Of a stretch of 64,000 nt of DNA, positions 403 to 28,519 are shown piece by piece. Each line of letters starts with the position of its first letter. The stretch's first letter is position 1. The notes beneath the pieces were generated by a model. It did no database searches. It was not told the origin of the DNA and worked only from the letters and a program-made list of their open reading frames with translations. The position numbers were made by a program, and so were the translations under genes. Source of the stretch: Truepera sp. (GTDB lineage: Bacteria; Deinococcota; Deinococci; Deinococcales; Trueperaceae); the NCBI GenBank assembly GCA_965218435.1, contig CBDCKW010000005.1, positions 160,001 to 224,000 of the forward strand, written 5' to 3'.

Positions 403-834
403 ATGGTGCTTTTGGGCGCACACGCTGGCCTGAGGGTTAGTGAGATGACCGCGCTGAAGTGGGAGGACATCGACCTCAGCAGTGGAACGCTCAAGGTCGT
501 GGCGGGTAAGGGGGGTAAGACCGCGCGGGTCAACCTCTCCTCCACCCTGGTCGAGGCGCTCGAGCACGTCCCACTAGAAAAGCGCAAAGGCTATCTCCTG
601 CCTGCACGCTCGCGGATTGCCGTGTACAAAAGGCTCGAGGCAGCGTGCCGGGTCGCCAAGGTCAAGTTCAAAGGGGTTCATGCCTTAAGACATGCTGCGG
701 GAACAAGACTCAGAGATGAGACCGGAGATTTGGCGTTGGTTGCCGACCACTTACGGCACTCATCGCTCGATACCGCGCGCGGCTACGCCAAAGCCAGCAA
801 CCAGCAGCTTAAAAAGGCGGTCGGGGACTGGTAA
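403..834 (+). CDS. Tyrosine recombinase catalytic domain, 5'-truncated by the IS982 insertion
   Basis: Motifs GLRVSE, GKGGK, HALRH, LRHSSLDTARGY. Frame begins 12 bp after the IS end and lacks an N-terminal binding domain. No obvious IntI-specific insertion. Confidence 0.9.
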   Translation: MVLLGAHAGLRVSEMTALKWEDIDLSSGTLKVVAGKGGKTARVNLSSTLVEALEHVPLEKRKGYLLPARSRIAVYKRLEAACRVAKVKFKGVHALRHAAGTRLRDETGDLALVADHLRHSSLDTARGYAKASNQQLKKAVGDW

Positions 835-987
835 CACGCACGACTACAGGCAGTCGTGCGCAAATAGCAGTATTGGTTCAGAAGTCTAGAGACAGCGGGT
901 GTAAAGCGCAGCGACTTTCCTAAAGAGTCACGCCTGGACAACTTTTTTTCTAAGCGAGCGGGAAACCTCAATTCCGACTGAATGACT

Positions 988-1021
988 GTTGTGCGTTTCT
1001 CGCGCTCATTAAACGCATAAC
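988..1021 (+). repeat. 34-bp lox-like site A (13-8-13)
   Basis: GTTGTGCGTTTCT-CGCGCTCA-TTAAACGCATAAC; the outer 11 bp of the arms are inverted repeats with one mismatch; about 150 bp downstream of the recombinase. Confidence 0.8.
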
Positions 1022-1126
1022 GCAGCTTTGACCACTGCCATGATCCGGGCACGGGTCCGCGCCCGGGCGATTGCCACGTTCCTTGCAACCACCTCGGGAA
1101 GCGTCTCCAAAGTGGGCAGTAGAAAG

Positions 1127-1786
1127 TCACCGGGGTTGGGACACGATCGACCGAAAGCGCCGGTCATCGCTCTGCATCCTCGGATCGAGGGTAGGGTCGG
1201 CATACATGGGAGGGCAGCCGTGATCGATGGCGTCGGAGCGCAGTTCGTAGTGCCAGGGTTCGTTGCTGTAGATCTGGCACAGTCCGTATTTGGCACCGTG
1301 TTCGGACAGCCACGCCGTGGCGTCGAAGTGCCCGATGTCGATTGCGTCCCCGGACACGTGAGCCGACGTACCTGCGGTGGCGACCCATCGGGCAGCTTTC
1401 TCTTCAGAGCCGTACTCGGAGACCGCCTCACGAAGAAGCTGATTCTGGTACTCCGGGGAACGCCAGCCGCTGTTGACGTAGAACGTGACGTCGGCGTCAG
1501 CGGCATCCGTCGCCGCTTCACGCAGCGCCCGGCGCAGATCGGGGTTGAGGTTGGCAACGCCGGGATACTCGTCATCAAATACGGTTACGCCGTCAGGGAC
1601 GGCACCGTCAGCCTCGGTAGGCGTGCCACCGTCGTCGCCGCGAAGGACGTCGCCGACCGAGGACGCCGATGACGATGACTGATAGACGAGGGTTCCGATG
1701 ATCGCAGCGGTGACGACGACTAGGCCGACGGCGGTGGGCTTGAGAGTCTTGCGGGACCTTGTTCGTGCTGGTTCGTTGTAGGGCAT
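1127..1786 (-). CDS. vanY: M15B D,D-carboxypeptidase (VanY-like) with N-terminal membrane anchor
   Basis: SGWRS, TSAHVSGDAID and EPWHY zinc-peptidase motifs; divergent from vanR. Confidence 0.85.
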   Translation of the reverse strand: MPYNEPARTRSRKTLKPTAVGLVVVTAAIIGTLVYQSSSSASSVGDVLRGDDGGTPTEADGAVPDGVTVFDDEYPGVANLNPDLRRALREAATDAADADVTFYVNSGWRSPEYQNQLLREAVSEYGSEEKAARWVATAGTSAHVSGDAIDIGHFDATAWLSEHGAKYGLCQIYSNEPWHYELRSDAIDHGCPPMYADPTLDPRMQSDDRRFRSIVSQPR

Positions 1787-1873
1787 GCCTCCAGTTAAGG
1801 TAGTGTGGTGTTATCAACGCGTATGTGGTTTTCGGTATGCCGACGATATGCGCCAACTTATAGAATTGAGAGC
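1787..1873. promoter_or_regulatory. Divergent vanY/vanR promoter region, probable VanR sites
   Basis: Homologous to the region upstream of vanH (shared CCAGTTAAGG...GGTGTT...GTATnTGGTTTTnGnTATGCCGACGATA). Confidence 0.65.
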
Positions 1874-2566
1874 ATGCGCGTGTTGGTTGTTGAGGACGAG
1901 CCCTACATGGCGGAGGCCATCCGCGACGGTCTACGCCTGGAAGCGATCGCGACCGACATCGCCGGTAATGGCGACGTCGCTTTGGAGTTGCTTAGCATCA
2001 ACACCTACGACATTGCCGTCCTCGACCGCGATATCCCTGGCCCCTCCGGCGACGAGATCGCCAAACGCATCGTCGCCTCCGGCGGCATGCCGATCCTGAT
2101 GCTCACTGCTGCGGACCGGCTCGACGATAAAGCCTCCGGGTTCGAGCTAGGAGCTGACGACTACCTCACGAAGCCGTTCGAACTGCGAGAGCTCGTGCTC
2201 AGGCTCAGAGCACTCGACCGCAGGCGGGCGCACAGCAGGCCACCCGTGTGGGAAATCGCAGGTCTGCGGCTCGATCCGTTCCGCAGAGAGGTCTACCGCG
2301 ACGGCCGCTACGTCGCGCTGACCCGGAAGCAGTTCGCCGTGCTCGAGGTCCTCGTTACCGCCGAAGGCGGTGTCATCAGCGCCGAAGAGCTCTTGGAACG
2401 GGCATGGGACGAGAACGCCGACCCGTTCACCAACGCCGTGCGCATCACGGTCTCAGCCCTACGCAAACGACTCGGCGAACCCTGGCTGATCGCCACGGTG
2501 CCCGGCGTCGGCTACCACATTGACACCGGACCAGACACCGGCAGCAGGGGCGGCAACGATGGCTAG
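1874..2566 (+). CDS. vanR: VanR response regulator (OmpR family)
   Basis: MRVLVVEDE...DIAVLDRDIPGPSGDE...GADDYLTKPF...AWDENADPFTNAVRIT, actinobacterial VanR type; adjacent to vanHAX. Confidence 0.92.
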   Translation: MRVLVVEDEPYMAEAIRDGLRLEAIATDIAGNGDVALELLSINTYDIAVLDRDIPGPSGDEIAKRIVASGGMPILMLTAADRLDDKASGFELGADDYLTKPFELRELVLRLRALDRRRAHSRPPVWEIAGLRLDPFRREVYRDGRYVALTRKQFAVLEVLVTAEGGVISAEELLERAWDENADPFTNAVRITVSALRKRLGEPWLIATVPGVGYHIDTGPDTGSRGGNDG

Positions 2567-3701
2567 AGCGCCTGGGTTGAGCGTTCGCCTCAAACTCACC
2601 CTCAGCTACGCCGGGTTCCTGATGCTCGCGGGTGCCTTGCTACTCGCGGTCGTGTGGGTGTTCCTTCTGCGTTACGTACCCAACGATGCGATCGTCTTCC
2701 CCGGTCGCCAGCTGTCCGAAAATGCGATCAGAACCCCTGGTTTCTCCCCTAGTCTCTTCTTTCCCGGTCGGTCCGATCTCATACGGGCGTTTGCTCCGAA
2801 AGCAGCCGCCGTGCTGACGTTCCTGCTGGTGTTTGGTCTCGTGGGAGGATGGGTCCTCGCCGACCGCATGCTCGCCCCGCTGGCTCGCCTTACCGACGCT
2901 ACGCGCCTGGCAGAGAGCGGATCGCTCTCCCACCGGATCCGGCTACCGGGCCGCAACGATGAGTTCCGCGAGCTCGCCGACGCCTTCGACGCCATGCTCG
3001 CACGGCTCGAGGCGCACGACGCCGAACAGCGGAGGTTCGCCGCCAACGCCTCTCACGAACTGCGCACCCCACTGGCGATCACGCAGACTCTTCTCGAGGT
3101 CGCTCGCAACGATCCCAACCACCACACCAGCGAACTTGTCGAACGCCTCCTCGCTGTCAACGCCCGAGCGATCGACCTCACCGAAGCATTGCTCCTGCTC
3201 AGCCGCTCAGACCAGCGGTCGTTCACCCGCGAGCACGTCGATCTCTCCCTCCTCGCGGAAGAAGCCACCGAAACACTCCTCCCCCTCGCGGAAAAGCGTG
3301 GCGTCACCATTCAGACCTCCGGGGAGATCAGTGCCACGAGCGGTTCACATGCTCTCTTGCTGCAGATGACCACAAACTTGCTGCACAACGCCATCGTCCA
3401 CAATCTCCCCGAACATGGCACCGTGCAGGTCACCACCGCCAGCCGCCTCGAGTCCGTCACGCTTACTGTCGAAAATACTGGCGACAAGCTCACACCACAG
3501 CTGGTCTCGATACTCACCGAACCGTTCCAGCGCGGTACCGAACGCATCCGCAGCGATCATGCGGGTGTCGGCCTGGGCCTGGCAATCGTCAAGAGCATCA
3601 CCCAAGCACACGACGGCACCCTTACCTTTGCCCCCCGTCCCGCTGGCGGACTTCGCGTCACGGTGCAGCTACCCGGCGCGCTACCGCACACCAACAGCTG
3701 A
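2559..3701 (+). CDS. vanS: VanS sensor histidine kinase
   Basis: GLSVRLKLTLSY N-terminus, two TM helices, HAMP domain, FAANASHELRTP H-box, GLGLAIV G-box; overlaps the vanR stop. Confidence 0.92.
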   Translation: MARAPGLSVRLKLTLSYAGFLMLAGALLLAVVWVFLLRYVPNDAIVFPGRQLSENAIRTPGFSPSLFFPGRSDLIRAFAPKAAAVLTFLLVFGLVGGWVLADRMLAPLARLTDATRLAESGSLSHRIRLPGRNDEFRELADAFDAMLARLEAHDAEQRRFAANASHELRTPLAITQTLLEVARNDPNHHTSELVERLLAVNARAIDLTEALLLLSRSDQRSFTREHVDLSLLAEEATETLLPLAEKRGVTIQTSGEISATSGSHALLLQMTTNLLHNAIVHNLPEHGTVQVTTASRLESVTLTVENTGDKLTPQLVSILTEPFQRGTERIRSDHAGVGLGLAIVKSITQAHDGTLTFAPRPAGGLRVTVQLPGALPHTNS

Positions 3702-3845
3702 CATGTAGGAGAATAGCCGCACGCCACGAGAGGAATGGCCAGGGCTAGGGGATAAGGCCGGCAGGCGCGTAAGCGTCACGGCTTGCTGATTCGCCAGGTC
3801 GTTCGACAAGGACGCTGGCGGCACTTTCCCGTTTACCTTGCTCAA

Positions 3846-4454
3846 CTATAGGATGGGAAAATCAAAGTACGTGTTTGGATAAGGTTCATCTTTCAGGGTG
3901 TAATGCCACCACTCAAAAGCGTACGACTTAAAGCCGCACCCCTCCATAATCGAACAAAGGTGGCGACGATTTTTCGCTTCAGCATGCGTGACGCCTTTTG
4001 CGCCATGATGCGAAACTAAATCCATCAGATCATAGTTACCGCCCATTAAAACAAGGTCACCGATATCTAGATGATAAAGCGTCAAATCGACTGTACTGCC
4101 CCGACTATGGCCCGATTTAGCGGCTACATATCCCTTTTCAAACATCGCGGCTCGATCAATATTCGGATAGTGCCTTCGTTTCGTCCGGCCATCCTCCGGC
4201 TGTTTCGACCAGCGCATAAAACAATCGACGGCGCGTTGAGGGCGATAACCATCCCAAAGGAGCAAGCCAAAACCAAGGGCCGCGGCATCGTCTCGAGCTC
4301 TTTCCAGGGCAGCGCACAACGCCCTCGTACCGACAATTCGGTTTACCAGATATCCGTCCACCGGTTTGCCGGTGAAGTTGTCCCAGGTGGCGTACTTGGC
4401 ATCCCAACGGATGCCGGACACCAGCTCGTCCACGAACACGAAGTCGTCGTTCAT
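3846..4454 (-). CDS. vanX: D-Ala-D-Ala dipeptidase VanX
   Basis: 202 aa; WDAKYATWDNFTGKPVDGY, WDGYRP, SGHSRGS, EWWHY. Confidence 0.97.
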   Translation of the reverse strand: MNDDFVFVDELVSGIRWDAKYATWDNFTGKPVDGYLVNRIVGTRALCAALERARDDAAALGFGLLLWDGYRPQRAVDCFMRWSKQPEDGRTKRRHYPNIDRAAMFEKGYVAAKSGHSRGSTVDLTLYHLDIGDLVLMGGNYDLMDLVSHHGAKGVTHAEAKNRRHLCSIMEGCGFKSYAFEWWHYTLKDEPYPNTYFDFPIL

Positions 4455-5491
4455 TGCTTTACCCCGTGCAGTGTCATCGACACGAGTTGATCGATCACGT
4501 CAGACAGCGGCAGTCCTGCGGCGGCCATCATCCTGGGATAGCGGCTGTACGATGTCATGCCCGGCAAGGTGTTGACCTCATTGAGTACCACCTGCCCGTC
4601 TTCCTTGAGAAACATGTCCACGCGGGCAAGTCCTTGGCAGCCTAGGGTATGGTAGATGGCCTTAGCGGTCTCTTGGACGAGCCGGCGCGATTCTTCGGAG
4701 ATGTCGGCAGGAACGATGAATGTCGAATTCTCCGAGCCGGTCTCGGGTGAGTTCTCCTGGTGGATCCTGAAAAATCCGTGCGAGAGAGCGACGCGGTCCA
4801 CCTCGCCCGCAACCAAGTTAAATCGCTCCCCTAGGATCGCGCAGCCGATCTCGCTTCCGAAAACAGCCTCCTCGATAAGGACTTTCGAGTCGTACTGTCG
4901 TGCGTTTTCCAGCGCGCTCTGCAACTTATCTTTTCCGGTGACTTTGCTGACGCCGAAAGATGATCCCGAACGGGCCGGCTTCACGAAAATGGGGTAAGGA
5001 AGCTGGTCGGGGTTAACCGTTTCGTTCCCTAAGACGACCCAAAAGTTCGGCGTGGCGATTCCCGCACTTCTAGCGACGATGTAGGCTAGGGTCTTGTCTA
5101 TGCACAGGGCCGAGCTCTGGACGTCGCAGCCGACATAAGGGATACCCGAGAGCTCTAGCAGACCCTGGATTGCACCGTCCTCGCCAAGCTTGCCATGGAG
5201 TACGGGGAAAACCAGGTCGAGGCGGACTGTTTCGTACTCTCCCTGCTCCAGAACCAGCAGGCCGTGCACGCGCCTGTCCGGTGACACTACAGCCGTCCGG
5301 TAGCAGCCGCTCTCCCAACCCGCGTCGGGGCCATCACAGAGATTCCACGCACCGCCCGCCGTAATACCGATCCAGTACGGTTCGTACTTCTCAGTGTCGA
5401 GGTTCTTCGCGACCTCTTGTGCAGACTTGACGGAGACGGGATGTTCTTCGGATGTTCCCCCGAATATGATTCCGATCTTCAACCTATCCAT
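4451..5491 (-). CDS. vanA: D-Ala-D-lactate ligase (VanA-type)
   Basis: Ddl fold with GFFRIHQE...GSENS omega loop and PGMTSYSRYPRM; between vanH and vanX; subtype not assigned. Confidence 0.93.
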   Translation of the reverse strand: MDRLKIGIIFGGTSEEHPVSVKSAQEVAKNLDTEKYEPYWIGITAGGAWNLCDGPDAGWESGCYRTAVVSPDRRVHGLLVLEQGEYETVRLDLVFPVLHGKLGEDGAIQGLLELSGIPYVGCDVQSSALCIDKTLAYIVARSAGIATPNFWVVLGNETVNPDQLPYPIFVKPARSGSSFGVSKVTGKDKLQSALENARQYDSKVLIEEAVFGSEIGCAILGERFNLVAGEVDRVALSHGFFRIHQENSPETGSENSTFIVPADISEESRRLVQETAKAIYHTLGCQGLARVDMFLKEDGQVVLNEVNTLPGMTSYSRYPRMMAAAGLPLSDVIDQLVSMTLHGVKQ

Positions 5492-6515
5492 GCCGCTTCC
5501 TGCTTTCAAAGTTCAAGCAGTTGATAAGACTGTTTTCAACGGAGTCGTTCAGGGCGTGATCGGTGTAATAAGCGGTGTGCGGAGTTATAAGCACATTCGG
5601 CAGGCTTTGTAGTCGCAACATCACCTTGTTTTCGATGGGCTTGTCTCGGCAATCGGCGTAGAAGATTCCTTCCTCTCCTTCAAGGACATCCAATGCCGCA
5701 CCGCCCAACCTGCCGCTTTCCAACGCTGGAATAAGGGCCTCGGTATCAAGAAGTGAACCGCGTCCAGTATTAATAATGAATGCACCAGCTTTCATCTGCG
5801 CGATACGTTGGCGATTTAGGAGATGGTGCGTGGCCACGGTAAGAGGGGTGTGGAGCGTGACAATATCGCTCTGCCATAGCAGTTCTTTAAGCGGAACGTA
5901 ATCGGCAGAGGTCTTAGGACGATGGTCATGAGCTAAGATTTGGCAGCCAAAGCCCCGCAGTCTATTTATGACCGCTGCGCCAATGCTTCCTGTTCCAATG
6001 ACCCCAATAGTCAGATCGCGCAATTCTTTCCCGCGTACGTCATTCAATCTGTAATCATGGATATCTGTACGGCAGATAGTGGATTTTGCCTGTCGCACCA
6101 CCATCAGCATCAGCATTAAGGTGTAATCAGCCACGCTATCGGGCGAACAGGCGACATTCTCAACGGATATGCCGACGCTCTCCGCGTATTTCACATCGAT
6201 ATGGTTATATCCAACGCTTCTCGTGGAGATATACATTACACCGGCTCGGCTAAGCGCAAGAAGCGTGGAATTTGTGATTTGGGTTTTATGACTGACGCTG
6301 ATGCATCGGTTTCCAAATGCCAGTTCAATGGTGGCTTCAGATACTGCTGCCTCGGTGATGGTTAGCAGTACGCCAAAGCGAGGTGCTATCTCTCGAAGCA
6401 AGGTGGCCTCGTCTGGCCCGCATCCGTAGATTGTGATTCCCATTCTTGGGACGGCCGCAGCCACCAGCGATTGGGTGCAGCGGGCCGCTGTTTGGACTGG
6501 TTCGCTGTGGGTCAT
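5484..6515 (-). CDS. vanH: D-lactate dehydrogenase VanH
   Basis: GITIYGC, ISTRSVGYNHID, SVADYTLML, DVLEGEEGIFY, PHTAYYT; overlaps the ligase start. Confidence 0.95.
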   Translation of the reverse strand: MTHSEPVQTAARCTQSLVAAAVPRMGITIYGCGPDEATLLREIAPRFGVLLTITEAAVSEATIELAFGNRCISVSHKTQITNSTLLALSRAGVMYISTRSVGYNHIDVKYAESVGISVENVACSPDSVADYTLMLMLMVVRQAKSTICRTDIHDYRLNDVRGKELRDLTIGVIGTGSIGAAVINRLRGFGCQILAHDHRPKTSADYVPLKELLWQSDIVTLHTPLTVATHHLLNRQRIAQMKAGAFIINTGRGSLLDTEALIPALESGRLGGAALDVLEGEEGIFYADCRDKPIENKVMLRLQSLPNVLITPHTAYYTDHALNDSVENSLINCLNFESRKRHG

Positions 6516-6756: not shown

Positions 6757-7020
6757 GGCATTGCCACGTTAAGTTTGTCTACCGCCCAGGTTCATGCTAG
6801 GGTTGGCGACTCGTGCGTACCGACCTCTACAAAGTCACCGCTTCCCGACCCAGATCATCAGCCGTCGCATGTGGCTTTATCATCGCTTCGACATGTCGTT
6901 TCGGGCGGTAGAAGAGCTGCTGTTCGAACGGGGTATCGTGCTGAGCTACGAGACCGTGAGGCGCTAGTGCCTCGAGTTCGGCGAGTACGACCGTCGCTTA
7001 AAGCGTCGCAGGGCACAAGC
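6757..7020 (+). pseudogene. IS6-family transposase 5' remnant
   Basis: GGCATTGCCACGTTAAG end, then HRFPTQIISRRMWLYHRFDMSFRAVEELLFERGIVLSYETVRR*CLEFG with an internal stop. Confidence 0.8.
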
Positions 7021-7126
7021 GGCCTTCCGGCCCGTTCGCAGCACAAGGGACATGTTCTATGGTCCTGGCGGTCTTTACGCGAGATGACCATCTTTGGCGC
7101 TATACTGTGAAGTGTCAGGAGCACCT

Positions 7127-7393
7127 ATGGACGCAAGCCTTGCCAATCTGCCTAAGCTCACCGGACTTCCCCCAAGTTTTCCTCAGAACGGTGCGATCAA
7201 CATCGTTCTCGAGCAAGGTGTGCCTACCTTTCGGGCCTCGCCCGCGGTTGTCAGCCGCGTCGAGCAGCTTCTTGAAAAGGAGCAGGAGGGCGGGTTGAGC
7301 AGGGCGAAAGCGGATGAACTTTCTCGTTACGAAGAGGTGGACGACTACCTCAGCCACCTGAACCGGGTTGTCCGGAACTTGCAGAGCGCTTAA
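7127..7393 (+). CDS. Small hypothetical protein of the type found upstream of HNH nucleases (putative antitoxin)
   Basis: RVEQLLEKEQEGGLS...ELSRYEEVDDYLSHLNR; 6 bp before the HNH gene. Confidence 0.6.
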   Translation: MDASLANLPKLTGLPPSFPQNGAINIVLEQGVPTFRASPAVVSRVEQLLEKEQEGGLSRAKADELSRYEEVDDYLSHLNRVVRNLQSA

Positions 7394-7399
7394 GGCGGG

Positions 7400-7852
7400 G
7401 TGGCGCGCCCCAAAGTACCTGATGTTTCAAAGGCCGAGGTCAGGACACGAGCAGCGTCTCTGTATGAATACTGCCACACGGACGAAACCCGGCAGTATGT
7501 GCCCTTTACCTTCGATCACGTCGTGCCTGTAAGTCTGGGTGGTAACACCACAGAGGAAAATCTGGCCCTTGCTTGCTTTCATTGCAATCGCCGTAAGGGC
7601 AATGCTGTACGCGCCGCTGATCCCACCACTGGGCAGGACGTACCGCTCTTCAACCCTAGAATGGACGTCTGGCAAGAACACTTTGTCTGGTCGGCCGACG
7701 GGCAGGAGATCGTTGCGCTGACCGTTACAGGGTGAGCGACTCTTCATGCTCTTGATCTCAACCGCGAGCGCGTCAAACGCATCCGCGAAGCTGACATAGC
7801 GGTCGGGCGGCACCCGCCCGTCGGCGATCCGGTTCGGACAGACGAAGGCTGA
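7400..7852 (+). pseudogene. HNH endonuclease with nonsense stop at 7733-7735
   Basis: DHVVP...NLALACFHCNRRK, LFNPR...WQEHF; the frame continues past TGA as ATLHALDLNRERVKRIR...GRHPP to a stop at 7852. Confidence 0.8.
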
Positions 7853-7854: not shown

Positions 7855-7888
7855 TTCTGCATTTGAACGCGCTCATTAAACGCACAAC
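7855..7888 (+). repeat. 34-bp lox-like site B
   Basis: TTCTGCATTTGAA-CGCGCTCA-TTAAACGCACAAC; spacer plus right arm match site A at 20/21. Confidence 0.8.
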
Positions 7889-8814: not shown

Positions 8815-8948
8815 CTCAGGTGTCCTTTCTGCGTGCTGGCTCGACCCGCTGAGCGGCTCGGCCTCGATGCCTCTGGTCCCCTCCCACCATCGTCGAGGAG
8901 GTCCCCAGAGTTCCCTCATCAGACAAACGCTGAGTTAACTTGGAAGGG

Positions 8949-11301: not shown

Positions 11302-11387
11302 CTCATTCTCCGTAGATAGGTGACGGCGTTCGCCGCCTGAGCTTTGATCGTCCTGCTAGACTTTCGCTTGCCTTCCCCTCCCTTTTA

Positions 11388-11405
11388 TAAGTGAGTTATC
11401 ACTAA
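11388..11405. promoter_or_regulatory. Probable TetR operator upstream of the oxidoreductase operon
   Basis: Imperfect palindrome TAAGTGA-GTTA-TCACTAA, similar to the one at 11971. Confidence 0.55.
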
Positions 11406-11436
11406 CATACGAAGAAATAAAAAAGCTACTAGGGAT

Positions 11437-17102: not shown

Positions 17103-17501
17103 CGTGCTTACCCCACTGAGATTGACGGTGTAGTCTTCGACTTCACGGGTTGTGGTCGGCGGGCTGAAGTTAAACTGCTGACGCACGATCTCCTGTATGG
17201 GCGACCCGCTACGCGGCGACCAGAGCAGCACCAGCTCCTGGGTGCGCTCTCGCTCATGCTCGTCGAACACCATATGGATGCGCCGGAGTTGCTGCGGCTT
17301 GTCGAACAGTAGACGGATGCGCTGCTCCCCGGTTCGTGCGGCGCGCCAGCTGTTCTCGCTGTCAGGTATCAGCGCTGCCTCTACTGGGTGCGCCGGATCC
17401 TCGGAAGTGACCTCGACCTGGGCAAGCCGCTCCAGGTTTAGCCACTCCCCTTCGGTTAGAGAGGGGTTATGTACGTCCTGAGCGAGTACCTTCTTACGCA
17501 T
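17094..17501 (-). pseudogene. Conserved small beta-sandwich (carbohydrate-binding-like) protein, probably 3'-truncated
   Basis: VEVTSEDPAHPVEAAL...WRA...EIVRQQFNFSP...STLEL; then runs antisense to the neighbour. Confidence 0.55.
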
Positions 17502-17634
17502 CGTTCACCTCACGCGAGAATATCGTGCGCCGACCGCCCCTCTCGCGGATTGGTGCCCGGCTCGGTAAACCTCGCCAGCCCGCCGCACCGAACCCAGTGG
17601 AGAACCGTTGGGCGCTTTTGGGAGAGTCACAAGC

Positions 17635-19446: not shown

Positions 19447-21224
19447 GCCAGCGCCTCTTCGAGTCCTGTCCGCAGCAAGCCAGCGAAGTGCGATGAAGGG
19501 TTAGCAGCCAGCGCCTTGCGATTGCCGAACTCGATACAGCGCCCCCCGTCCAAGATCATGATCTCGTCCACCCGCTGCACCGTCGCCAGTCGGTGGGCGA
19601 TGATGATGGCGGTCCGGCCTTCCAGCAGGCGGTCGATGGCACGCCCGAGTTGCTGCTCTGTGGCAGGGTCAAGCCGGGACGAAGCCTCGTCGAGGATCAC
19701 CAAGCCGGGGTCTTTCAGGAACACCCGCACGAACGCCAAAAGTTGCGCCTGCCCCGCCGAGAGGTCGCTCCCACCGGGGGCGAGGCGGCTGTCGAGTCCC
19801 TCGGGCAACGACCGGTACCAGGGGCCGAGCCCGACTTCGTGCAATACCGCGAGCATGCGCTCGTCATAGACGTTGGGGTCAAAAAGCGAAAGGTTTTCGC
19901 GCACAGTCGCGTGGAAGAGCTGGATCTCCTGCGTCACCATCCCGACACCTTTGTGGACGGCCCCGGCTCGCAACTCGGGCAGCGGAACGCCGCCAAGGTG
20001 GATCGTGCCCCCGGTCGGATCGTAAAGCCTCAGCAGCAGCCGGGTGAGCGTCGTCTTGCCGCTACCCGTGCGTCCCAGCAGCCCCAGCTTCGCGCCCGGG
20101 CGGAGCATGAACGACACATCCTGGAGCACCCACTCGGGTTCCTCCTGGTCTTCAGCCACTGGGTAGCGGAAGGATACGCTCCGGAACGAGACTGCGGGCG
20201 CATCTTCAGTCAGCCCGAGCGTCCCGGCGTCCTCGAGCCGCGCCCTTGTGCCCAGCAGATCGGAGATGCGGAGGATCGATGCGCCCGCCTGCTGCAAGTC
20301 CTGGACCTGCCGCCCGATGACCTCGATGGGGCCGGTCAGGAGCTGGGTGTAACGGAATATCAGGAACACTGTGCCGATGGTGATCTCACCCCGCTGAAAG
20401 AGGATCGCCCCGCCGCCCAGGGCGATGACCGACCCTAGCGAGAACAGCACCGCCGAAAGGCTAAAGGTGCTCACGCCGATCAGGCTCGCCTTAAGTTGCG
20501 TGCGCAGGACCTTCCGGGCCTGCTCGAAAAAGCGGCGCATGACGTAGGCGGTTGCCCCGCTCGAGCGCACGTCTTCCGTGCCGGCCAGGCGCTCCTCCAA
20601 GAAACCAAACAGCTCCGCGTCGGCTTCTCTCGAGGCGCGGAAGTGGGGCACAGCCACGTCCCTCGACACGTAGACAACCACAAAGGTCAGGACTGTGAAC
20701 AGTACTAAAGCTGCGCCCACCCTCCAATCTATCCAGGCGAGGGCGACGAGCACGCCGAGCATCAGCAGGCCGTTGCCGAGCAGGTCCACGGCGAAGCGGG
20801 AAAAGAAGTTCTTGAGCCGCCCCACGTCCCCGTCGATCCGCTCGATGAGCGCCCCGGGCGTCTGGCCGTTATGGAAGGTCATATCGAGGCCGAGGACGTG
20901 CTCGGTCAGGTCCGCCCGGAGTTCGTTGGTCGCCCTGAGTCCTAAGTTCTCGGCGACGTATGCTTCGACTACAGACAGCAGCTGGACGCCGATGGTGAGC
21001 ACCAGAAACAGGACCGCCAGACGAACGAGCACGGCGTACGAACCACCGCCGGTAGCGGCGTTGATGAACTGCGAAAGGAGGTATGGGCTTACGAGCTGTA
21101 ATCCCACTCCGGCGAGCAGGAAGGCGAGCAGCAGGAGCGCTTGACGCCAGAATGGACCCACGTAGCCCACCAGGACGGAGCGGTACTGACCCAGGCCTAC
21201 CCCCATAAGGGTTCCCACACGCAC
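19443..21224 (-). CDS. ABC exporter subunit (heterodimer partner 1)
   Basis: [20 protein letters not shown]; 4-bp overlap with its partner. Confidence 0.9.
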
Positions 21225-21527
21225 ACAGGCGTAGATAAAGAAAGCACCTCGAACATTATGACAGGAATTCGGTTACAACGGCCTAGGTCAGGTCCCTCGA
21301 TTAGCGAGCGCAGCCTCTAAAGTCAAGCTTAGGGCTTTCCGGTAGAGGGCTAGCTCCTGTCGACTTTGGTCTCGGAGTAAACCAGCACCACATGGATGGT
21401 CGTACCTGCGAAGTGTTGAAGTTGAATGAACCCACAAACCTTCAGGAGCCGACCGCCCTAGTGGTGCACCGTCTCCCACGGCCTTAATGGGCGGCCCAAG
21501 CGCCAGGCGGAAGGGTCGCGGCAGCGC

Positions 21528-22586
21528 CTACTCGTCCCAACCGGTATGGAGCCGAGGCTGCTCCCAGCTTCCGTCCGGCTCCCAGCGGATGAACGTCCCG
21601 TCGAACGGCCAGGCGCGGGATTCGATTAGGGAGAGGACCCGGGCGCGAGCACTCTCCACATGGTCGGCAGTTTCTGCCGAGATGACCCCCCACCTGATCC
21701 CTTCTCGGTATTCCGTCTCGTCCTTCCACGCCCAGGTCAAATCCGGCGCGACGTCCAGGTCGAGCTCGAGGTCAAACGTGTCGAAGCCTAGCGCAGAGCG
21801 CACGAAGGGCAGTTGGAAGTTGACGTACCAGCCGACGAACGCGCCCGTCTCGTGGTGCCAGCACACCCAAGTAGCAAAGTAGTTCCCGGGCCGAATGAGC
21901 TTCAGGACGCGCAGGCGACTCCAAACGGTGTCACCCATTGACCAAGCGCCGCTGTGCTGTTCTTCCCACCTCGAGGTACGCGGCGCGTTCCCCGCCATCA
22001 CCTGCAAGAACAGGGTGCTGATCTTGCACTGCGCGCCCGGGGTGAGCAGGAGCGCCGTCAGCTCGGGCGTGTCCTGGACGACCGTGACGGGCCTAGCACA
22101 GACGACTTTTTCGTTCAGCACCTCGTGGAACGTGACGGCCTCACCCGGACTCCAGTAGTGGCTCACTCCGACCTCACCCACCGTTCTTAGCACGTCGAGC
22201 ACCCTCGACACCTGGCGATCGTTCGCCACGCTGTCTAACGGCAGCCAGGCCACCTCCTGCAACATCCGCACGTCCGCCGCCAGATGCGCCTCTTCCGGGT
22301 CATGCCCCAGCAAGGCGGTCTGGCCCGCGTCCGCCTCGAGCAGGTGGCAAAGGCTTGCGCCGCCTCCGTACAGCTCCTCGAACAAGAAGCGCACGACCCG
22401 GGCGTCCAGCCCGGTCTCCTCGCGGACCTCACGCACGGCCGCTTCTTCGGGCGTTTCGCCCGGCTCGACGCCGCCGGGCAGCGTCCAGTAGGTGCGCCCG
22501 CCGTGCTCATGGCGCACCATCAGGATGTCGTTTCCGAGAATGATGGCCGCGCAAGCTCTTGGTCGCACCCTCCGGCTCCTTCTCAA
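21528..22586 (-). CDS. NUDIX hydrolase fused to a DUF402 domain
   Basis: PGGVEPGETPEEAAVREVREETGL Nudix box; C-terminal GWYVNFQ...DLELD...WKDE. Confidence 0.75.
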   Translation of the reverse strand: MRRSRRVRPRACAAIILGNDILMVRHEHGGRTYWTLPGGVEPGETPEEAAVREVREETGLDARVVRFLFEELYGGGASLCHLLEADAGQTALLGHDPEEAHLAADVRMLQEVAWLPLDSVANDRQVSRVLDVLRTVGEVGVSHYWSPGEAVTFHEVLNEKVVCARPVTVVQDTPELTALLLTPGAQCKISTLFLQVMAGNAPRTSRWEEQHSGAWSMGDTVWSRLRVLKLIRPGNYFATWVCWHHETGAFVGWYVNFQLPFVRSALGFDTFDLELDLDVAPDLTWAWKDETEYREGIRWGVISAETADHVESARARVLSLIESRAWPFDGTFIRWEPDGSWEQPRLHTGWDE

Positions 22587-22667
22587 GGCTGGGATTGAAA
22601 TGGCGCTTGACTACAGTAGGATAAGCCCTAACGCGGCCCCCAGACTTGGCGGGCGAGGAGGCCACAC

Positions 22668-23495
22668 GTGAGGATCGCGACCTACAACCTCTGGAACTCC
22701 CGCGTCCGCTGGCCGGAGCGGTTGGACGCGGCGGTCGAAGAGCTCGTGCGCCTCGATGCCGACGTCGTTGCCCTACAGGAGGTGGCGGCGCGGGTGGAGG
22801 AGCACGACGGGCGCGACGCTGCTGCATTACTCGCGGAGCGGTGCGGTTACGGCCACGTCGTGACCCGGCTCTACCCAAACGACCCGGACGAGGGAGTGGC
22901 GTTCCTGAGCAAGCAGCCGCTACGCGCCGTCGAGGCCGGGTGGGACACCGGCCTGTCGGCGCTGGCGAACTGCGGGCTCCGGGCGCGCGTGAGCGTCGGC
23001 GGCACTAAGGTCGTGCTCACGAACGTCCACCTCGACTGGGAGAACATCGCCGCCAGGGAGGCGCAGACTGCGCAAGTGATGGCGTGGATCGAGATGCGCT
23101 CGGAGGCGGGGTGTTACGAGGTGCTGTGCGGCGACTTCAACGCCACGCCGGACTCGAGCGTCTACCGGTTCCTGATGGGTCAGCAGACGCTGCAGGGTAG
23201 GGGACCCGGCCCCGGCTGGCATGACCTGGCGCGTTCTCACGCCGAGAGGAATGGCAGATCGCCCGAGCCCACGCTCGACTTCTGGCATAACCCGCGCTGG
23301 CGGGACGCACCGACGCTCGAGGTGCCGATGCGTGTTGACTGGCTGCTCCTGCGGGACCTCTTTAACACGGCCCTGCCCTACCCCAGCGTGCCGGACGCTG
23401 GCATTTTCGGCACCCACCCGACACCTCAGATGCAGGTGGTCCCTAGGGACCACTACGGCGTTTACGCGAACCTCTATTTCGGTAGACGGGACTGA
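22668..23495 (+). CDS. Endonuclease/exonuclease/phosphatase family protein
   Basis: ATYN, LQEV, GDFN, (R)DHYG. Confidence 0.88.
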   Translation: MRIATYNLWNSRVRWPERLDAAVEELVRLDADVVALQEVAARVEEHDGRDAAALLAERCGYGHVVTRLYPNDPDEGVAFLSKQPLRAVEAGWDTGLSALANCGLRARVSVGGTKVVLTNVHLDWENIAAREAQTAQVMAWIEMRSEAGCYEVLCGDFNATPDSSVYRFLMGQQTLQGRGPGPGWHDLARSHAERNGRSPEPTLDFWHNPRWRDAPTLEVPMRVDWLLLRDLFNTALPYPSVPDAGIFGTHPTPQMQVVPRDHYGVYANLYFGRRD

Positions 23496-23552: not shown

Positions 23553-23586
23553 TCGTCGCGTTACGCGCGCTCATTTCACGCATAAC
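23553..23586 (+). repeat. 34-bp lox-like site F
   Basis: TCGTCGCGTTACG-CGCGCTCA-TTTCACGCATAAC. Confidence 0.75.
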
Positions 23587-23931: not shown

Positions 23932-24930
23932 CTACCAGGCGAGCCCATCCAGGTGGTTGTGGCCTGAAAGCACGCGAGCAATGCGCTCCCGCGCCGCTTC
24001 ACGCTCGTCCGCTACGGGGTGATGGGTATAGAGCGCGAGCTCACACTGCATGTCATAGAAGAGCAACCGTTCCCGCAGATGCTCGCGCTCGAACAGTTCC
24101 GGATACGCGCCACGCAGCCATCCAGGGACATCAGTGAGGGTGGTCTCGTCGAGCCCTCGTCCGCCGGGTACGGGAGGGTACTCACTCGCCTTCGCACACC
24201 AGCGGAGGATGATATCGAGTTCGACATCCGCTGGCTGGGCCAACGCCTCGGCGAAATCGAGGAGACCGGTAACGCGTCCTTCGTCAACGATCACGTTGGA
24301 TCCATGTACGTCACCGTGGACAAGGACGGGTTCGTCGGCAGCGAACAACGCCAGCCGCTCCCGGACCCAGTCGGCGACGTCGGCGAGTAGGCGCGAGTCA
24401 CACCCGGGCCGTCGCCGCGCAGCCTCGACCTGACCGAGCACCGCATTCACCACAGGTGGGTGGTACGCAGCCCGCGGCTTCCCGGCGAGCGCATCGGCCA
24501 GCCACGGCGGCAGCAGGTCCGCCGAGACAGGAACCCGGTGCAGCGCACGCAACGCAACGCCGAGGCTTTCGATCATTGCTTTGCGCGTGGGCACGTCTGC
24601 CCCCGGCCACGCGTCGTGCAGGGTTCGCCCGGGCACGCGTTCGGAGACGCACCACGGGCCGTCGGGGCCGTCGCCGTGACCGAGGTGTCGGGCGTGTGGA
24701 ACCTCGCTGCCGGCGAGCAGGTTGACGACTGTGGCCTCGTGGCGAAACGAGTCGCGAAACTGTCCGTTGCTCAGCCGTACGACGTATTCGTCGCCGACCC
24801 ACACACGGCTAACCCAGCCGGCCTTTGGAAGAAATCGCCCGGTTCCCGGTAGCCCAGCGGCCGCCAGCGTCCTCAGCAGGGCTGGGTCACTGGCAGGCTC
24901 GTCAACAAACGCTGCTGAAAGCTCGCCCAC
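23932..24930 (-). CDS. Aminoglycoside phosphotransferase (APH/choline kinase) family protein
   Basis: HGDVHGSN and LLDF motifs. Confidence 0.85.
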   Translation of the reverse strand: MGELSAAFVDEPASDPALLRTLAAAGLPGTGRFLPKAGWVSRVWVGDEYVVRLSNGQFRDSFRHEATVVNLLAGSEVPHARHLGHGDGPDGPWCVSERVPGRTLHDAWPGADVPTRKAMIESLGVALRALHRVPVSADLLPPWLADALAGKPRAAYHPPVVNAVLGQVEAARRRPGCDSRLLADVADWVRERLALFAADEPVLVHGDVHGSNVIVDEGRVTGLLDFAEALAQPADVELDIILRWCAKASEYPPVPGGRGLDETTLTDVPGWLRGAYPELFEREHLRERLLFYDMQCELALYTHHPVADEREAARERIARVLSGHNHLDGLAW

Positions 24931-25048: not shown

Positions 25049-25395
25049 ATCGAGAAAACATGGTGAGATATCGTTGCAGCAGTTCAGTAACGATGTCTCA
25101 CCCAACGAAGATCGAAGTAGAAAGCCGCCTAAAACAGCGGAATATAGTGCTCGAGTTGTGAGCTATGGGCCACAAAAAGCTACAAGCTTATCTATGCAGC
25201 GGTATCCATAGTTAGTTTGTTCCATCTATTGCAAGGAAACGGGCTTGGACAGGCAAAAATCTACCGAATTGACGCTGCGGCTAGCGGGGCAAATTTTCGT
25301 GACCTTGATTGTCCGAACTATATGCTCAAAAACACCGCGAGGCAAGTGATGGCAAATAAAGAACCTACTTCGTAAAGTAAGTGCGAGGTGAACCC

Positions 25396-26370
25396 ATGAC
25401 CGAGCCTGACGCTTCCGCCCCTCTTCAACCCGTCACCAGCTTTGACAGCCCTACCCTCGAGTTTGACTTTCCCGGGCTCGAGATCGGCTGCGCTGAGTAC
25501 GAGGAGGGACCCACCGGCTGCACCGTTTTCCACTTCCCGCAGTCTGCAAGCATAGCGACCGACGTACGCGGCGGCCTGCCGGGCGTGTTCATGGCAGGTG
25601 ACGGTCCTACCGAGGCCATTTGCTTTGCGGGCGGCTCGCTCTACGGCCTTGAGGCGTGTACCGGGGTGACCGCCGAATGGCTAGCTCGCCGTCAGGCATC
25701 GGGCAAGTCGGCGAACATTTTTGATGACATCGCGGTCGTGCGGGGTGCCATCATCTTCGACTTTGCGCACCGCCAGAACTTTATCTATCCCGATCACGCC
25801 TTAGGACGTAGTGCCCTCCAGGTAGCTCGACCCGGCCGCTTTCCGTTAGGACAATGCGGGGCAGGACGCTCGGCTGATGTCGGCAATGGCCTCGACTGGC
25901 AAGGAGAAGAACCAGGGGGTCAAGGGGGTGCGGTACGCGACTTCGGCGAGGTCAAGCTAGCGGTATTCACCGTCGTTAACGCCATAGGTGCCGTTGTAAA
26001 CCGTAACGGCGAGGTGGCGCGGGGTCATCTCGACCGTCAGACCGGAGAGCGCAGCCACCTGAAAGACGACCTCGAGGCGACCCTGGGCGCGTCCGATTCG
26101 GGTCGGCCCACCCGAGCAACGACCCTGACGCTGGTCGTGACCAACGTCAAGCTGACGCCGACTGACCTCACACAGCTTGGGCGACAAGTCCATAGCTCGA
26201 TGGCCCGGGCGATTCAGCCGTTTCATACCAGCTTCGATGGCGATGTGCTGTTCACCGCCACAACTGGAACGCACGAGATGCATGAACTAAGCCCGGCGCA
26301 CCTCGGGGTCCTAGCCTCCGAGCTGGCTTGGGACGCCGTACTGAGGGCTGTCGGCGTCAACCCTCAGTAA
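25396..26370 (+). CDS. P1/S58 (DmpA) family Ntn hydrolase, NylC-like
   Basis: EFDFPG..IG.AEYEEGPTG, DVRGG, AGGSLYGL, TTLT, DGDVLF. Confidence 0.8.
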   Translation: MTEPDASAPLQPVTSFDSPTLEFDFPGLEIGCAEYEEGPTGCTVFHFPQSASIATDVRGGLPGVFMAGDGPTEAICFAGGSLYGLEACTGVTAEWLARRQASGKSANIFDDIAVVRGAIIFDFAHRQNFIYPDHALGRSALQVARPGRFPLGQCGAGRSADVGNGLDWQGEEPGGQGGAVRDFGEVKLAVFTVVNAIGAVVNRNGEVARGHLDRQTGERSHLKDDLEATLGASDSGRPTRATTLTLVVTNVKLTPTDLTQLGRQVHSSMARAIQPFHTSFDGDVLFTATTGTHEMHELSPAHLGVLASELAWDAVLRAVGVNPQ

Positions 26371-26502: not shown

Positions 26503-27552
26503 ATGCCTGCCACTCTGAACCGTAAACGCCTCGAGCTCGCATTTGACACTCTCGGCGCGGACGTCCGCGCGGGCCAAGCCTCAGCCACCGTCTTCGGCGT
26601 CGCCTCTGCTCACGAGACCGTGCGCCTAGAAGCTTTCGGGCAGACCTCCGGAACGCCCCTTACAACCGACCATATCTTCTTGCTGGCGTCGATCACCAAG
26701 CCCATCGTCGCAACCGCCGTGATGCAGCTCGTCGCCGACGGTCGTCTGCTGCTTAACGAACCCCTGGTCAAGCATCTACCCGAACTAGCAGCCCCCGGCA
26801 AACCGCAGCTCACTGCGTGGCACCTGCTCACGCACACCTCGGGTATCAGGGAGATCGACTGGCTTACAACGTTGCGGCAGCTTCCCGAGCGGGTGGTGAG
26901 TTTTGAGGTCGCCTGCGCTGAGATGCCGCTGTTTACACCGGGCTCGAGCTTTTCGTACAGCACCCTGACGTTCTACCTGCTCGCCGAACTCATCACCCGC
27001 GTTTCGGGTTTGCCATTTGCGGCGTACCTGGAGGTGCACATCTTTAGACCGCTTGGGATGAAAGACACGTCGTTCGACCCGCGTGGGCAACGCTCCCGGA
27101 TGGTCGAGGTCGAAAGGATCACCGGGCCAGGTGGCCCCTCTGCTGAGAGAGCGACGGACGCGTTTATCTCGTTCGCGATGCCGGGGGCGGGGTTATGGAG
27201 CACGGCTGAGGACCTCGTCCACTTTGGTCAGGCGCTCTTACGCCGTGACCCCGAGCTGTTACCGCCGACCTACGTCGAACTGATGAGCCGTGACCAAACA
27301 CACGGGCTGCTCGCGCCGGGGACCGTGTCAAGGCCCCAGCATCAGACGCTCGGCTGGCGCAAAGGTAAAGTTGATGGCTTCGACGTGGTGCCTGCCTCGT
27401 CCTCAGTGATCGAGCACGATGGGGCCACGGGCGGGCAGCTCTGGCTCGACCCGGAACACGACCTCGTGTTCGTTTACCTTACCAACCGTTTCGGGGCTGA
27501 CTCGAGCGTGCGGCAGCGGGCGCTTCAGGTGGTCTATAGTGCTTTGACTTAG
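26503..27552 (+). CDS. Beta-lactamase-family serine hydrolase
   Basis: SITK, LLTHTSG, YS(T), HDG. Confidence 0.88.
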   Translation: MPATLNRKRLELAFDTLGADVRAGQASATVFGVASAHETVRLEAFGQTSGTPLTTDHIFLLASITKPIVATAVMQLVADGRLLLNEPLVKHLPELAAPGKPQLTAWHLLTHTSGIREIDWLTTLRQLPERVVSFEVACAEMPLFTPGSSFSYSTLTFYLLAELITRVSGLPFAAYLEVHIFRPLGMKDTSFDPRGQRSRMVEVERITGPGGPSAERATDAFISFAMPGAGLWSTAEDLVHFGQALLRRDPELLPPTYVELMSRDQTHGLLAPGTVSRPQHQTLGWRKGKVDGFDVVPASSSVIEHDGATGGQLWLDPEHDLVFVYLTNRFGADSSVRQRALQVVYSALT

Positions 27553-27594
27553 TAGGGGCGGTCTTGAAAGCAGCGTATTCGCAGGCGAAAGGAC

Positions 27595-28419
27595 ATGATG
27601 TCTCACCGATCTCTCGGAACTCTACCAGTCGAATATATCCGGGACGTCGTTTATGGCCGAGCCGACGAGACTGAGTTGCTTCTCGATATCGTCCAACCCT
27701 TAACAGTCAACGGTCCACGTCCTGCTATTGTCCAGCTTCACGGGGGCGGCTGGATCAAGGGCGAGAAAGAACCCGCTAGTAATCACACCCTCGCACAACA
27801 CGGCTTTTTTACCGTCAGCATCAACTACCGGCTTAGCCCAGCTCACATTTTCCCGGCTCACATCCACGACTGCAAGGCGGCGGTGCGCTGGTTACGGGCC
27901 AACGCCGAGCGCTACAAGATTGATCCCAACCGTATCGGTGTCTGGGGCGGCTCTGCGGGGGGTCATCTTGCGGCCCTGCTAGGCACCTCTTATGGCGTTA
28001 AGGAACTCGAGGGAACGAGCGGTTCGCCCGGTTTTTCCAGCCGTGTTCAGGCCGTAGTCTCGGTCTGTGGCGCGAGCGACCTAAGCCAACCACCTGACGG
28101 CTACTGGCAAAACGATCCAGCCTCTGAACCGTCACTACTCTTTGGCGGCTTGGTACGTGACAAGGCAGAACTGGTGAGGCTAGCCAACCCCATCACGCAT
28201 ATCCGCCCTGATACGCCGCCGATTCTACTGATTCATGGTGACGAGGACGAAGTCGCGCCATTTTTACACTCACAGCTTCTCGACGTGGCTTTGCGAGAAG
28301 CTGGTGCGGACGTCACGCTGGTTCGGGCTAAGGGGAAAGCTCACGGCTTCTCCGAACCCTGGCAACAGCGAATTGACACGCTCCGCTTAGAATTCTTCAA
28401 GAAGCATTTGCAAAAGTAG
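27595..28419 (+). CDS. Alpha/beta esterase/lipase
   Basis: HGGGW, GGSAG, HGDED. Confidence 0.88.
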   Translation: MMSHRSLGTLPVEYIRDVVYGRADETELLLDIVQPLTVNGPRPAIVQLHGGGWIKGEKEPASNHTLAQHGFFTVSINYRLSPAHIFPAHIHDCKAAVRWLRANAERYKIDPNRIGVWGGSAGGHLAALLGTSYGVKELEGTSGSPGFSSRVQAVVSVCGASDLSQPPDGYWQNDPASEPSLLFGGLVRDKAELVRLANPITHIRPDTPPILLIHGDEDEVAPFLHSQLLDVALREAGADVTLVRAKGKAHGFSEPWQQRIDTLRLEFFKKHLQK

Positions 28420-28449
28420 ACGTGCTCAGTCAGTAGCAGGCTGTACATC

Positions 28450-28483
28450 TTTATGCAATACTGCGGCCCAATCCACGCACAAA
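28450..28483 (+). repeat. Variant lox-like site H1
   Basis: TTTATGCAATACT-GCGGCCCA-ATCCACGCACAAA; good outer inverted arms, divergent spacer. Confidence 0.55.
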
Positions 28484-28485
28484 AC

Positions 28486-28519
28486 CCTCGGTTAAAGAAG
28501 CGCTCAAGTGCCGCATAAA
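28486..28519 (+). repeat. 34-bp lox-like site H2
   Basis: CCTCGGTTAAAGA-AGCGCTCA-AGTGCCGCATAAA; right arm 12/13 identical to site D. Confidence 0.7.

Follow-up and report, generated by a model that had tools for sequence, protein, structure and literature searches.

Gene modules bordered by candidate 34-bp recombination sites of two core classes in Truepera and its relatives

The array in the first part of the window

The stretch of DNA analysed here, which we call the window, comprises 64,000 nt (positions 160001-224000) of the 685-kb contig C5 of a Truepera genome (G000), and its first part is an array of gene modules separated by short, related sequences. The original prediction took ten of these sequences for lox-like 13-8-13 sites of a single kind, at which multi-gene cassettes had been inserted by a recombinase encoded beside the first of them. 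All ten 34-mers are present at the predicted positions on the + strand, with the predicted spacers (CGCGCTCA in six, nGCGCTCA in two), and they score 11.1-32.1 bits against a leave-one-out matrix, the lowest being the one at 12141. The length of 34 bp stands, but the proposed centre does not. The best parse is 14-6-14, two imperfect inverted 14-bp arms flanking an invariant 6-bp core, and the core comes in two classes, GCGCTC (L) and CGGCCC (R), with the site at 28450 belonging to the second. When TTRTGCG-Nk-CGCAYAA was searched on contig C5 with k from 8 to 30, k = 18 gave seven matches, all with GCGCTC or CGGCCC in the middle, and every other k gave zero to two. The left and right arms of one site resemble each other barely more than random arms do. 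The R class and its doublets had been overlooked: with four further R sites (7014, 16393, 24981 and 26379; 9.3-23.3 bits) the window holds 14 sites, nine L and five R, all on the + strand, and four of the R sites stand immediately 5' of an L site (R][L doublets).

The window begins with the right part of an IS982-like element (1..390, - strand; an IS982 transposase is the best NCBIfam family, below cut-off for this partial open reading frame, or ORF). It is 99.7% identical to a copy on the chromosome, has a 9-bp target duplication at 391-399 and interrupts a tyrosine recombinase gene, which is itself preceded, outside the window, by a PIN toxin gene. The C-terminal remnant of the recombinase gene (403..834, +; PF00589) is followed, 153 bp past its stop codon and in agreement with the predicted distance of about 150 bp, by the first L site (988..1021, +; core at 1002-1007; 39.4 bits), which is also as far as two other copies of the recombinase module remain homologous. 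The first cargo is a glycopeptide-resistance cluster assigned by Pfam (vanY, vanR, vanS, vanX, a D-Ala-D-Lac ligase gene and vanH; 1127..6515), in which VanX and the ligase exceed their NCBIfam cut-offs and VanO models score best but under cut-off. An R site follows (7014..7047, +; core CGGCCC; 15.3 bits), and a match to the relative G002 spans 6751-7014, stopping at its edge. Between this R site and the next L site (7855..7888, +; 28.2 bits) lies a module of a 99-aa ORF and an HNH nuclease gene (7094..7735, +), with similar DNA in G057 and G005. The 99-aa product belongs to no known family and a protein-cluster search returned unnamed clusters only; judged by its position, we suspect that the module is a toxin-antitoxin candidate.

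The right arm of the L site at 7855 contains the stop codon of an SDR gene (ORF 7876-8919), the first of a cargo that also includes genes for an alpha/beta hydrolase, a FAD-binding protein and a TetR regulator (7876..11982, -). A weak L site (12141..12174, +; 22.8 bits, 11.1 on leave-one-out) separates this cargo from an ABC exporter (12529..14295, -; Pfam, NCBIfam), and another L site (14435..14468, +; 36.9 bits) separates the exporter from a PEP-mutase family gene and an ada-type alkylation repair gene (14493..16392, -). Then come a doublet of a degenerate R site and an L site (16393-16426 and 16428-16461, +; 9.3 and 32.3 bits) and a longer cargo of an ORF of no assigned family, an ABC exporter pair, a NUDIX-DUF402 gene and an EEP nuclease/phosphatase gene (16812..23495). 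An L site (23553..23586, +; 31.2 bits) precedes an APH-family phosphotransferase gene (23932..24930, -), which is followed by a doublet (R 24981-25014 and L 25015-25048, the latter with core ACGCTC, +; 23.3 and 33.0 bits), a peptidase S58 gene of the NylC/DmpA-like type (25381..26370, +) and a doublet with a degenerate R site of core CGGCCT (26379-26412, and L 26413-26446, +; 14.5 and 38.7 bits). A serine hydrolase gene with a beta-lactamase fold and an esterase gene (26503..28419, +) are the last cargo, and the array ends with a doublet (R 28450-28483 and L 28486-28519, +; 35.3 and 23.1 bits). All of these cargo assignments rest on Pfam matches.

Downstream are parB, parA and the Rep3 initiator gene of the plasmid-type replicon that bears the array (31184..36876; Pfam), and a sugar-utilisation region (40040-63843) with an ABC importer, isomerases, oxidoreductases, a split alpha-L-rhamnosidase, an amidohydrolase and an enolase. 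As had been predicted for these regions, no full site was found there: a scan of 28520-64000 returned nothing of at least 13 bits. A sequencing run that carries this DNA has four additional bases at 15591 and nine at 17053. Because of the four bases at 15591, we attribute the frameshift that splits ada to a probable misassembly of this contig. DNA 66-79% identical to the VanO-like cluster occurs in several genomes of the family, among them G093, G049, G107, G076 and G070; since these genomes are not rich in sites, the cluster was probably captured into the array from a source within the lineage.

Sites, module borders and two slots

A scan of the whole genome with separate L and R matrices, trained on these same sites, gave 72 matches of at least 18 bits, assembly duplicates still included, compared with 6 in the reversed genome. 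Two redundant stretches were excluded from later counts (the window from 15592 onwards is repeated in contig C2, and positions 1-63.5 kb of C5 recur at 242-309 kb), and the non-redundant total is 67 sites: 42 on C5, 18 on the chromosome (C9), 6 on C7 and 1 on C3. A duplication of sites at C5:35647/277731 and 43538/285615 proved only apparent, as both pairs lie within the 63-kb duplicated assembly stretch. The sites are not confined to this array, which corrects the original prediction. In this genus adjacent sites are direct in 59 of 63 cases. Of 70 L sites, 15 are preceded at 33-42 bp by an R-like site and none is followed by one (background 0.1%), so that the doublet appears as a conserved unit. 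In other genera 28 of 190 L sites have an R-like site on either side. Segments between sites include 14 of the L-to-L and four of the R-to-R type. Cores fall inside long ORFs in 17 of 338 cases, against a background cover of 69% (chromosome C9 excluded).

Comparison between genomes was based on 356 sites, namely the 67 of G000 and a further 289 from 2.1 Mb of sequence surrounding pattern matches in ten other genomes and five metagenome loci; these regions were chosen for holding matches and do not give whole-genome counts (the reversed control gave one hit). No result here depends on G115, an unpublished genome. We compared 400 bp outward from each core. In all 97 site pairs with a shared flank the homology is one-sided, and no pair shares both flanks, in keeping with the prediction that the sites delimit independently moving multi-gene modules; a smaller first set of sites had given 56 of 56. 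Random anchors in the first set of regions, in a design that was similar though not identical, gave two-sided homology in 2198 of 3285 homologous placements (67%). The core class is the same in 96 of the 97 pairs. Moreover, 12 whole site-to-site modules recur with different neighbours, five of them aligning in reverse. For example, a module of about 1.05 kb with an R core at its start and an L site at its end is present twice in G000 (99.4% identical), and G008 has two copies of an 859-bp L-to-R module whose ends are both 100% identical, homology breaking off at each core. The window's own modules behave in the same way: a 2556-nt contig of run X6 aligns only over 26472-28471, the hydrolase module, leaving unaligned letters at both ends and reaching only 2 nt beyond the R core, and run X1 has a near-identical copy of the APH module in a contig that spans 23595-24718 with 25 differences.

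Whether breakpoints fall in the spacer, a test proposed with the original prediction, can be followed at higher resolution in 24 high-identity flank pairs. The breakpoint lies inside the 34-mer in 22 of them and falls cleanly at the core in 15, and in all six within-genome pairs of at least 98% identity the near arm is intact. Mismatches on the shared side increase towards arm position 7 (8 of 21), whereas positions 8-10 have only 0-1. A dif-like reading with the crossover outside the 34-mer was rejected, as the flank beside an outer arm moves together with that arm. Nor do the sites resemble ends of insertion sequences or of miniature inverted-repeat transposable elements, given that the breakpoints lie inside the 34-mer in those 22 pairs and the repeats are direct. 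The sites are almost certainly recombination borders.

The two kinds of core also divide the cargo. We surveyed segments of up to 6 kb in G000, G002, G005 and one metagenome contig, scanning ORFs of at least 70 aa. Every one of the eight R-to-L segments carries a type II toxin family (RES in three, PIN in four, twice beside a recombinase, and PemK in one), and none of the 21 L-to-R segments does. One R-to-L segment (in L011, beside a broken copy of the enzyme described below) was dropped, since its right bound is weak and overlaps an oppositely oriented doublet. The L-to-R cargo consists of TetR or AraC regulators with SDR genes, hydrolases, APH, streptomycin adenylyltransferase, DinB and transporters, and one ABC ATPase among it has a secondary match to the AAA_21 family. 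Cargo in this genus is found in both orientations and brings its own regulators, and in L-to-R segments the orientation of site and gene is independent (29 same, 20 opposite). The window, with the van cluster bounded by L988 and R7014 and the small ORF and HNH nuclease gene between R7014 and L7855, therefore fits this two-slot scheme, the toxin role being only suspected. PADLOC matches at 1e-10 were obtained for 2 of 52 selected cargo proteins, which gives no ground for proposing an enrichment for defence.

The small contig C7 of G000 (L004, 12.3 kb) has six co-oriented sites, and its cargo comprises an Xre-RES pair, a gene of the streptomycin adenylyltransferase family and two of the APH family. 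In the recombinase module of G008 and G004 (L070:8480-9532; L087) a YhcG/DUF1016 nuclease gene replaces the toxin-antitoxin pair. At L001:3031-6012, a 466-aa ORF, which from its translation we take to be ThiF/E1-family-like, is followed by a gene whose helix-turn-helix product contains an HExxH motif and then by a small ORF, and the whole looks like a ubiquitin-like or regulated defence module.

A recombinase family linked to the sites

The prediction that the recombinase at 403-834 built the array is not supported. The gene is split by the IS982-like element, and among 11 rows of homologues only three have a site downstream, all in G000, where three near-identical copies are each followed by a strong symmetric L site; like any other cargo, these copies lose their homology at the site. 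The genomes richest in sites are G008, G054-G057 and G059. No match to this recombinase was found in G008, and G054-G057 and G059 have only matches of 35-54% identity, none of them a close homologue. The remnant is probably a passenger rather than the cassette enzyme.

A listing of all tyrosine recombinases pointed instead to P0001, a 296-aa protein encoded outside the window (C5:584985-585872; a broken copy lies at C5:68190-69006), which is 31% identical to the 403-834 recombinase over only 61 residues. Genes of the P0001 family have a site 60-89 bp upstream of their start in 15 of 16 loci, compared with 1 of 1000 random windows; 13 of these sites are L-class and two R-class. P0001 has the R-K-H-R-H-Y catalytic set and the core-binding and catalytic fold of a simple, Xer-like tyrosine recombinase: in 31 relatives R144, K168, R246, H269 and Y278 are invariant and H243 nearly so. 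Its structure model (mean predicted local distance difference test score, pLDDT, 85.7) contains these two domains only, with no arm-binding domain, and the nearest structures are XerA and XerD. P0001 scores under the NCBIfam cut-offs for XerC, XerD, XerA and IntI; the Halobacillus enzyme introduced below is just above that of NF040815 (225.6 versus 220). The closest named relatives, 68-71% identical, come from Trueperaceae. In a tree (with three outgroup rows from a profile search of representatives, and with the frameshifted L120 in a meaningless position) the enzymes beside GCGCTC sites and those of GCGCGC-bearing genomes form sister clades with support of 99/95 and 100/97. The Trueperaceae clade carries a basic insert of 14-15 residues after residue 202 that the 280-aa Bacillota forms lack. 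Among 128 genomes of the family, all seven with the enzyme (at least 68% identity) have 3-45 L-pattern matches, and of the 121 without it 115 have at most two and six have at least three, a co-occurrence among kin that is not an independent test. From these sequences, the cassette enzyme likely belongs to the P0001 family.

The ribosome-binding site of the site-linked recombinase lies within a conserved hairpin with a complementary CCTCC (L085:2386-2435, - strand, and 13 other loci); it has 10 pairs, two with compensatory changes, in 14 of 14 aligned loci, and may keep translation of the recombinase low. Other tyrosine recombinase genes are present as well. One, at L001:7086-8477 (C5:152086-153477), encodes 463 aa with an N-terminal part like sigma-70 region 4 and has long-ORF relatives in G001, G002 and G055. 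Two divergently oriented genes at C5:368003-371341 (L005) have about 75-83% DNA similarity to one gene of G005 and directly precede a third, broken recombinase gene and an L site.

Relatives of P0001 with 42-60% identity are found in Halobacillus, Sediminibacillus, Sulfobacillus and Alicyclobacillus and on Bacillus and Peribacillus plasmids. At six of 17 such Bacillota loci the enzyme gene is followed within about 150 bp by a 14-6-14 site with core CTGCCC or CGGCCC, its inner triplets identical to those of Trueperaceae; analogous Bacillota cores also include GCCCCC. In Halobacillus sp. Nhm2S1 a stretch of 40 kb contains 43 co-oriented sites at a median spacing of 660 bp and another of 10 kb contains 13 (control 0), mostly with core GCCCCC; one R site lies 42 bp upstream of an L site. 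The longest ORF between sites is on the opposite strand in 36 of 41 cases, and the cassette genes belong to the GNAT, NUDIX, MFS and methyltransferase families, 16 of the 34 scanned being without a family. Among the loci of Halobacillus and Sediminibacillus, homology is one-sided in all 12 pairs that share a flank. In a sample of 301 Bacilli genomes the exact Halobacillus pattern was found in four, including the seed, and a close relative of the enzyme in 16, so the exact pattern misses most enzyme-bearing genomes; in G238, from the blind sample, the enzyme gene lies between two such sites. AAA-ATPase and GNAT cassette genes of Halobacillus also occur on Bacillus/Priestia plasmids, with no flanking site in three of three regions, one of which has a site 1.3 kb away. 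The Halobacillus L sites (G144:C4:86197-123414; L244, L245) have an additional conserved tail of about 15 bp past the right arm, which those of Trueperaceae lack and which may be an accessory binding site. Bacillus/Peribacillus plasmids with an enzyme relative or a shared cassette gene (L242, L243, L247) have a few sites with GCGCCC, TGGCCC or GCGCGC as core, suggesting further core variants.

Proposed exchange, its alternatives and known systems

Comparison of sequences establishes borders at the sites, like-with-like cores, direct orientation and linkage between site and enzyme in two phyla. Building on this, we propose that the window is an array of gene modules joined at 34-bp tyrosine-recombinase sites, with L and R cores exchanging only with their own kind, and that P0001, encoded in its own site-flanked module, would act on them in trans as double-stranded DNA. 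A crossover between two co-oriented sites of the same core would excise or insert one or more modules as a circle. If one core recombined first and the other next, two replicons would trade one L-to-R or R-to-L module, which would amount to cassette exchange in nature. These steps are modelled on the established behaviour of tyrosine recombinases, and the exchange of single modules follows what PMC13141974 proposes for dif modules. In this genus the L-to-R slot would take metabolic and resistance cargo, and the R-to-L slot would be empty (the R][L doublet) or hold a toxin-antitoxin pair, with or without the recombinase, that could stabilise the array. Decay of the R half would yield L-to-L runs and, because the core GCGCGC is palindromic, a module could be inserted there either way round. 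We put the probability of this full two-core model at about 0.7.

A number of observations pull the other way. In seven of the 24 high-identity pairs there are 2-4 differences in the seven shared-side arm bases beside the core, and two more pairs share the far inner arm (the far inner 7-mer); a plain lox-type crossover does not account for these nine, behind which may lie shifted crossovers, branch migration or a mismatch-tolerant exchange region. Kinship among the flank pairs and among the genomes makes the counts interdependent, and the eight R-to-L segments represent five distinct modules. No excision product or site-to-site joint was seen in the assembled contigs (15 listed of 52). Two enzyme loci have an R-class instead of an L upstream site and one has no scored site; 11 of the 17 Bacillota loci showed no site just downstream of the enzyme with the patterns tried. 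Furthermore, the enzyme was not found in the site-bearing genomes G002, G005, G057 and G058 (91-99% complete), nor, at E 1e-70, in the site-bearing G422 and G391. For the first four, loss of the enzyme is plausible because it sits in a site-flanked module itself.

The nine pairs without a clean break are where another chemistry, with the same modules and the same enzyme, would show itself: the 34-mer would be two overlapping simple sites, the variable 7-mers mismatch-tolerant exchange regions and the 6-bp centre a binding element. Coupling sequences of Tn916-type integrases do tolerate mismatch, the break in these nine pairs is at the inner 7-mer boundary and not at the core, and the rise of mismatches up to arm position 7 and their fall beyond it would fit such regions. 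We regard this as unlikely, given the 15 pairs that break at the core, the intact near arm in all six of the closest within-genome pairs and the agreement of core class in 96 of 97, which is expected if the core must match. The four genomes without the enzyme raise a different possibility, namely that a host recombinase common to all carriers uses the sites, as with pdif, and that the XerD-like gene is one more module. Every module, enzyme-bearing or not, has a border site, and the toxin-antitoxin modules amid cargo resemble dif modules as described in PMC13141974. This is nevertheless distinctly improbable: XerD exceeds the NCBIfam cut-off in none of five site-rich genomes (though in only 4 of 14 controls as well), these five do not share one best chromosomal candidate, the core sequence tracks enzyme clades, analogous sites stand beside relatives of the enzyme in another phylum, and the sites are direct, not inverted or alternating.

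That the recombinase next to the first site integrated the modules serially, as the original prediction had it, we consider very unlikely. It is true that each of its three near-identical copies in G000 precedes a strong symmetric L site, that G002 and G005, which lack P0001, carry intact or nearly intact homologues and that a co-oriented array in G005 begins 7.8 kb downstream of one. But eight of the 11 rows have no site downstream, the most site-rich genomes have no close homologue, and the gene here is broken and shares with the site-linked enzyme only the short stretch of similarity given above. We give almost no credence to the simplest reading, a transcription-factor operator or passive intergenic repeat with a modular look due to ordinary horizontal transfer: the sites are intergenic and 18 are scattered on the chromosome too, but each of the 97 shared flanks ends at the site, sites and genes are oriented independently in this genus, the cargo is functionally unrelated and Rfam returned nothing for the window or for four Halobacillus loci.

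The two-core model places the array close to two known kinds of cassette. According to PMC13141974, dif modules have short double-stranded sites with a matching 6-bp spacer, two module classes, toxin-antitoxin modules amid cargo, empty modules, and excision of pairs or formation and resolution of cointegrates, with observed or, for movement, proposed counterparts here (spacer agreement in 96 of 97 pairs, toxins in 8 of 8 R-to-L segments). The same paper gives pdif sites as 11-6-11 with XerC and XerD arms, in inverted alternation, used by host enzymes on Rep_3/OrfX plasmids, and states that dif modules are found uniquely in Acinetobacter. In contrast, the sites here are 14-6-14 with a TTATG-like motif at the outer edge and breakpoints inside the 34-mer, they are direct (59 of 63 in this genus, 43 of 43 in Halobacillus), what separates their two classes is the core, runs of L-to-L segments are frequent, and in Deinococcota and Bacillota the sites are associated with a mobile recombinase of their own. 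With integrons as described in PMC8618304, the array shares tandem accessory genes and a tyrosine recombinase gene with a 5' site (the attI-like position, at 15 of 16 loci). In both, arrays may also lie at a distance from the enzyme gene or lack it altogether, and the mostly single, co-oriented GNAT, NUDIX and methyltransferase genes of Halobacillus are of cassette-like families. Unlike integrons, the system has 34-bp sites with a fixed core and no consistent folding, and the Trueperaceae modules are multi-gene and in either orientation. A hairpin or attC reading was rejected accordingly, with folding z-scores from -3.7 to +1.2 for the ten sites and from -2.3 to +0.8 for four doublets against mononucleotide shuffles. 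For IntI (TIGR02249, cut-off 265), P0001 reaches 92.6 bits and the Halobacillus enzyme 102.5, none of the five site-rich genomes has a protein over the cut-off, and the match of VchIntIA to the linked enzyme is restricted to residues 209-282. The original prediction was thus right that the sites are neither attC nor pdif: the system belongs to neither integrons nor dif modules, though it works like both.

Cre/loxP, Flp/FRT and Vika/vox also use a 34-bp site with inverted arms, in which the core sets direction and partner choice, and two mutually exclusive cores are the principle of recombinase-mediated cassette exchange in the laboratory. Systems of the Cre/loxP type have one conserved site per replicon and serve dimer resolution or copy control; here, in contrast, there are dozens of divergent sites that bound cargo, and the enzyme is closest to XerD/XerA. 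In having a core-binding and a catalytic domain only, P0001 resembles the simple Xer-subgroup recombinases of mobile elements in PMC8138268, the available portion of which describes no Xer-like enzyme running multi-site cassette arrays outside integrons. We found no description of this system in full-text literature, in a search that left out most subscription journals and supplements, so that an earlier account, especially of the Bacillota repeat, is possible; the cassette system is real and probably undescribed. The odds are about even for a broader joint reading, in which it would be a third general cassette platform beside integrons and dif modules: one mobile XerA/XerD-like family across Deinococcota and Bacillota, two exclusive lox-like cores and cassette exchange on double-stranded DNA, together with a dedicated toxin-antitoxin addiction slot, Gram-positive arrays of dozens of genes on the scale of chromosomal integrons and the capture of a whole glycopeptide-resistance cluster.

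Criteria designed for integrons or dif modules would not flag these arrays, which have no attC, IntI or pdif. If the proposed activity is real, one recombinase that accepts divergent arms and two orthogonal cores would be a tool for genome engineering. With a van cluster, a streptomycin adenylyltransferase family gene and several APH-family genes among the cargo, the system is a possible environmental route for resistance genes. And if the assignment of the enzyme is true, some hypervariable islands of Deinococcota and Bacilli would become readable as cassette arrays with defined borders.

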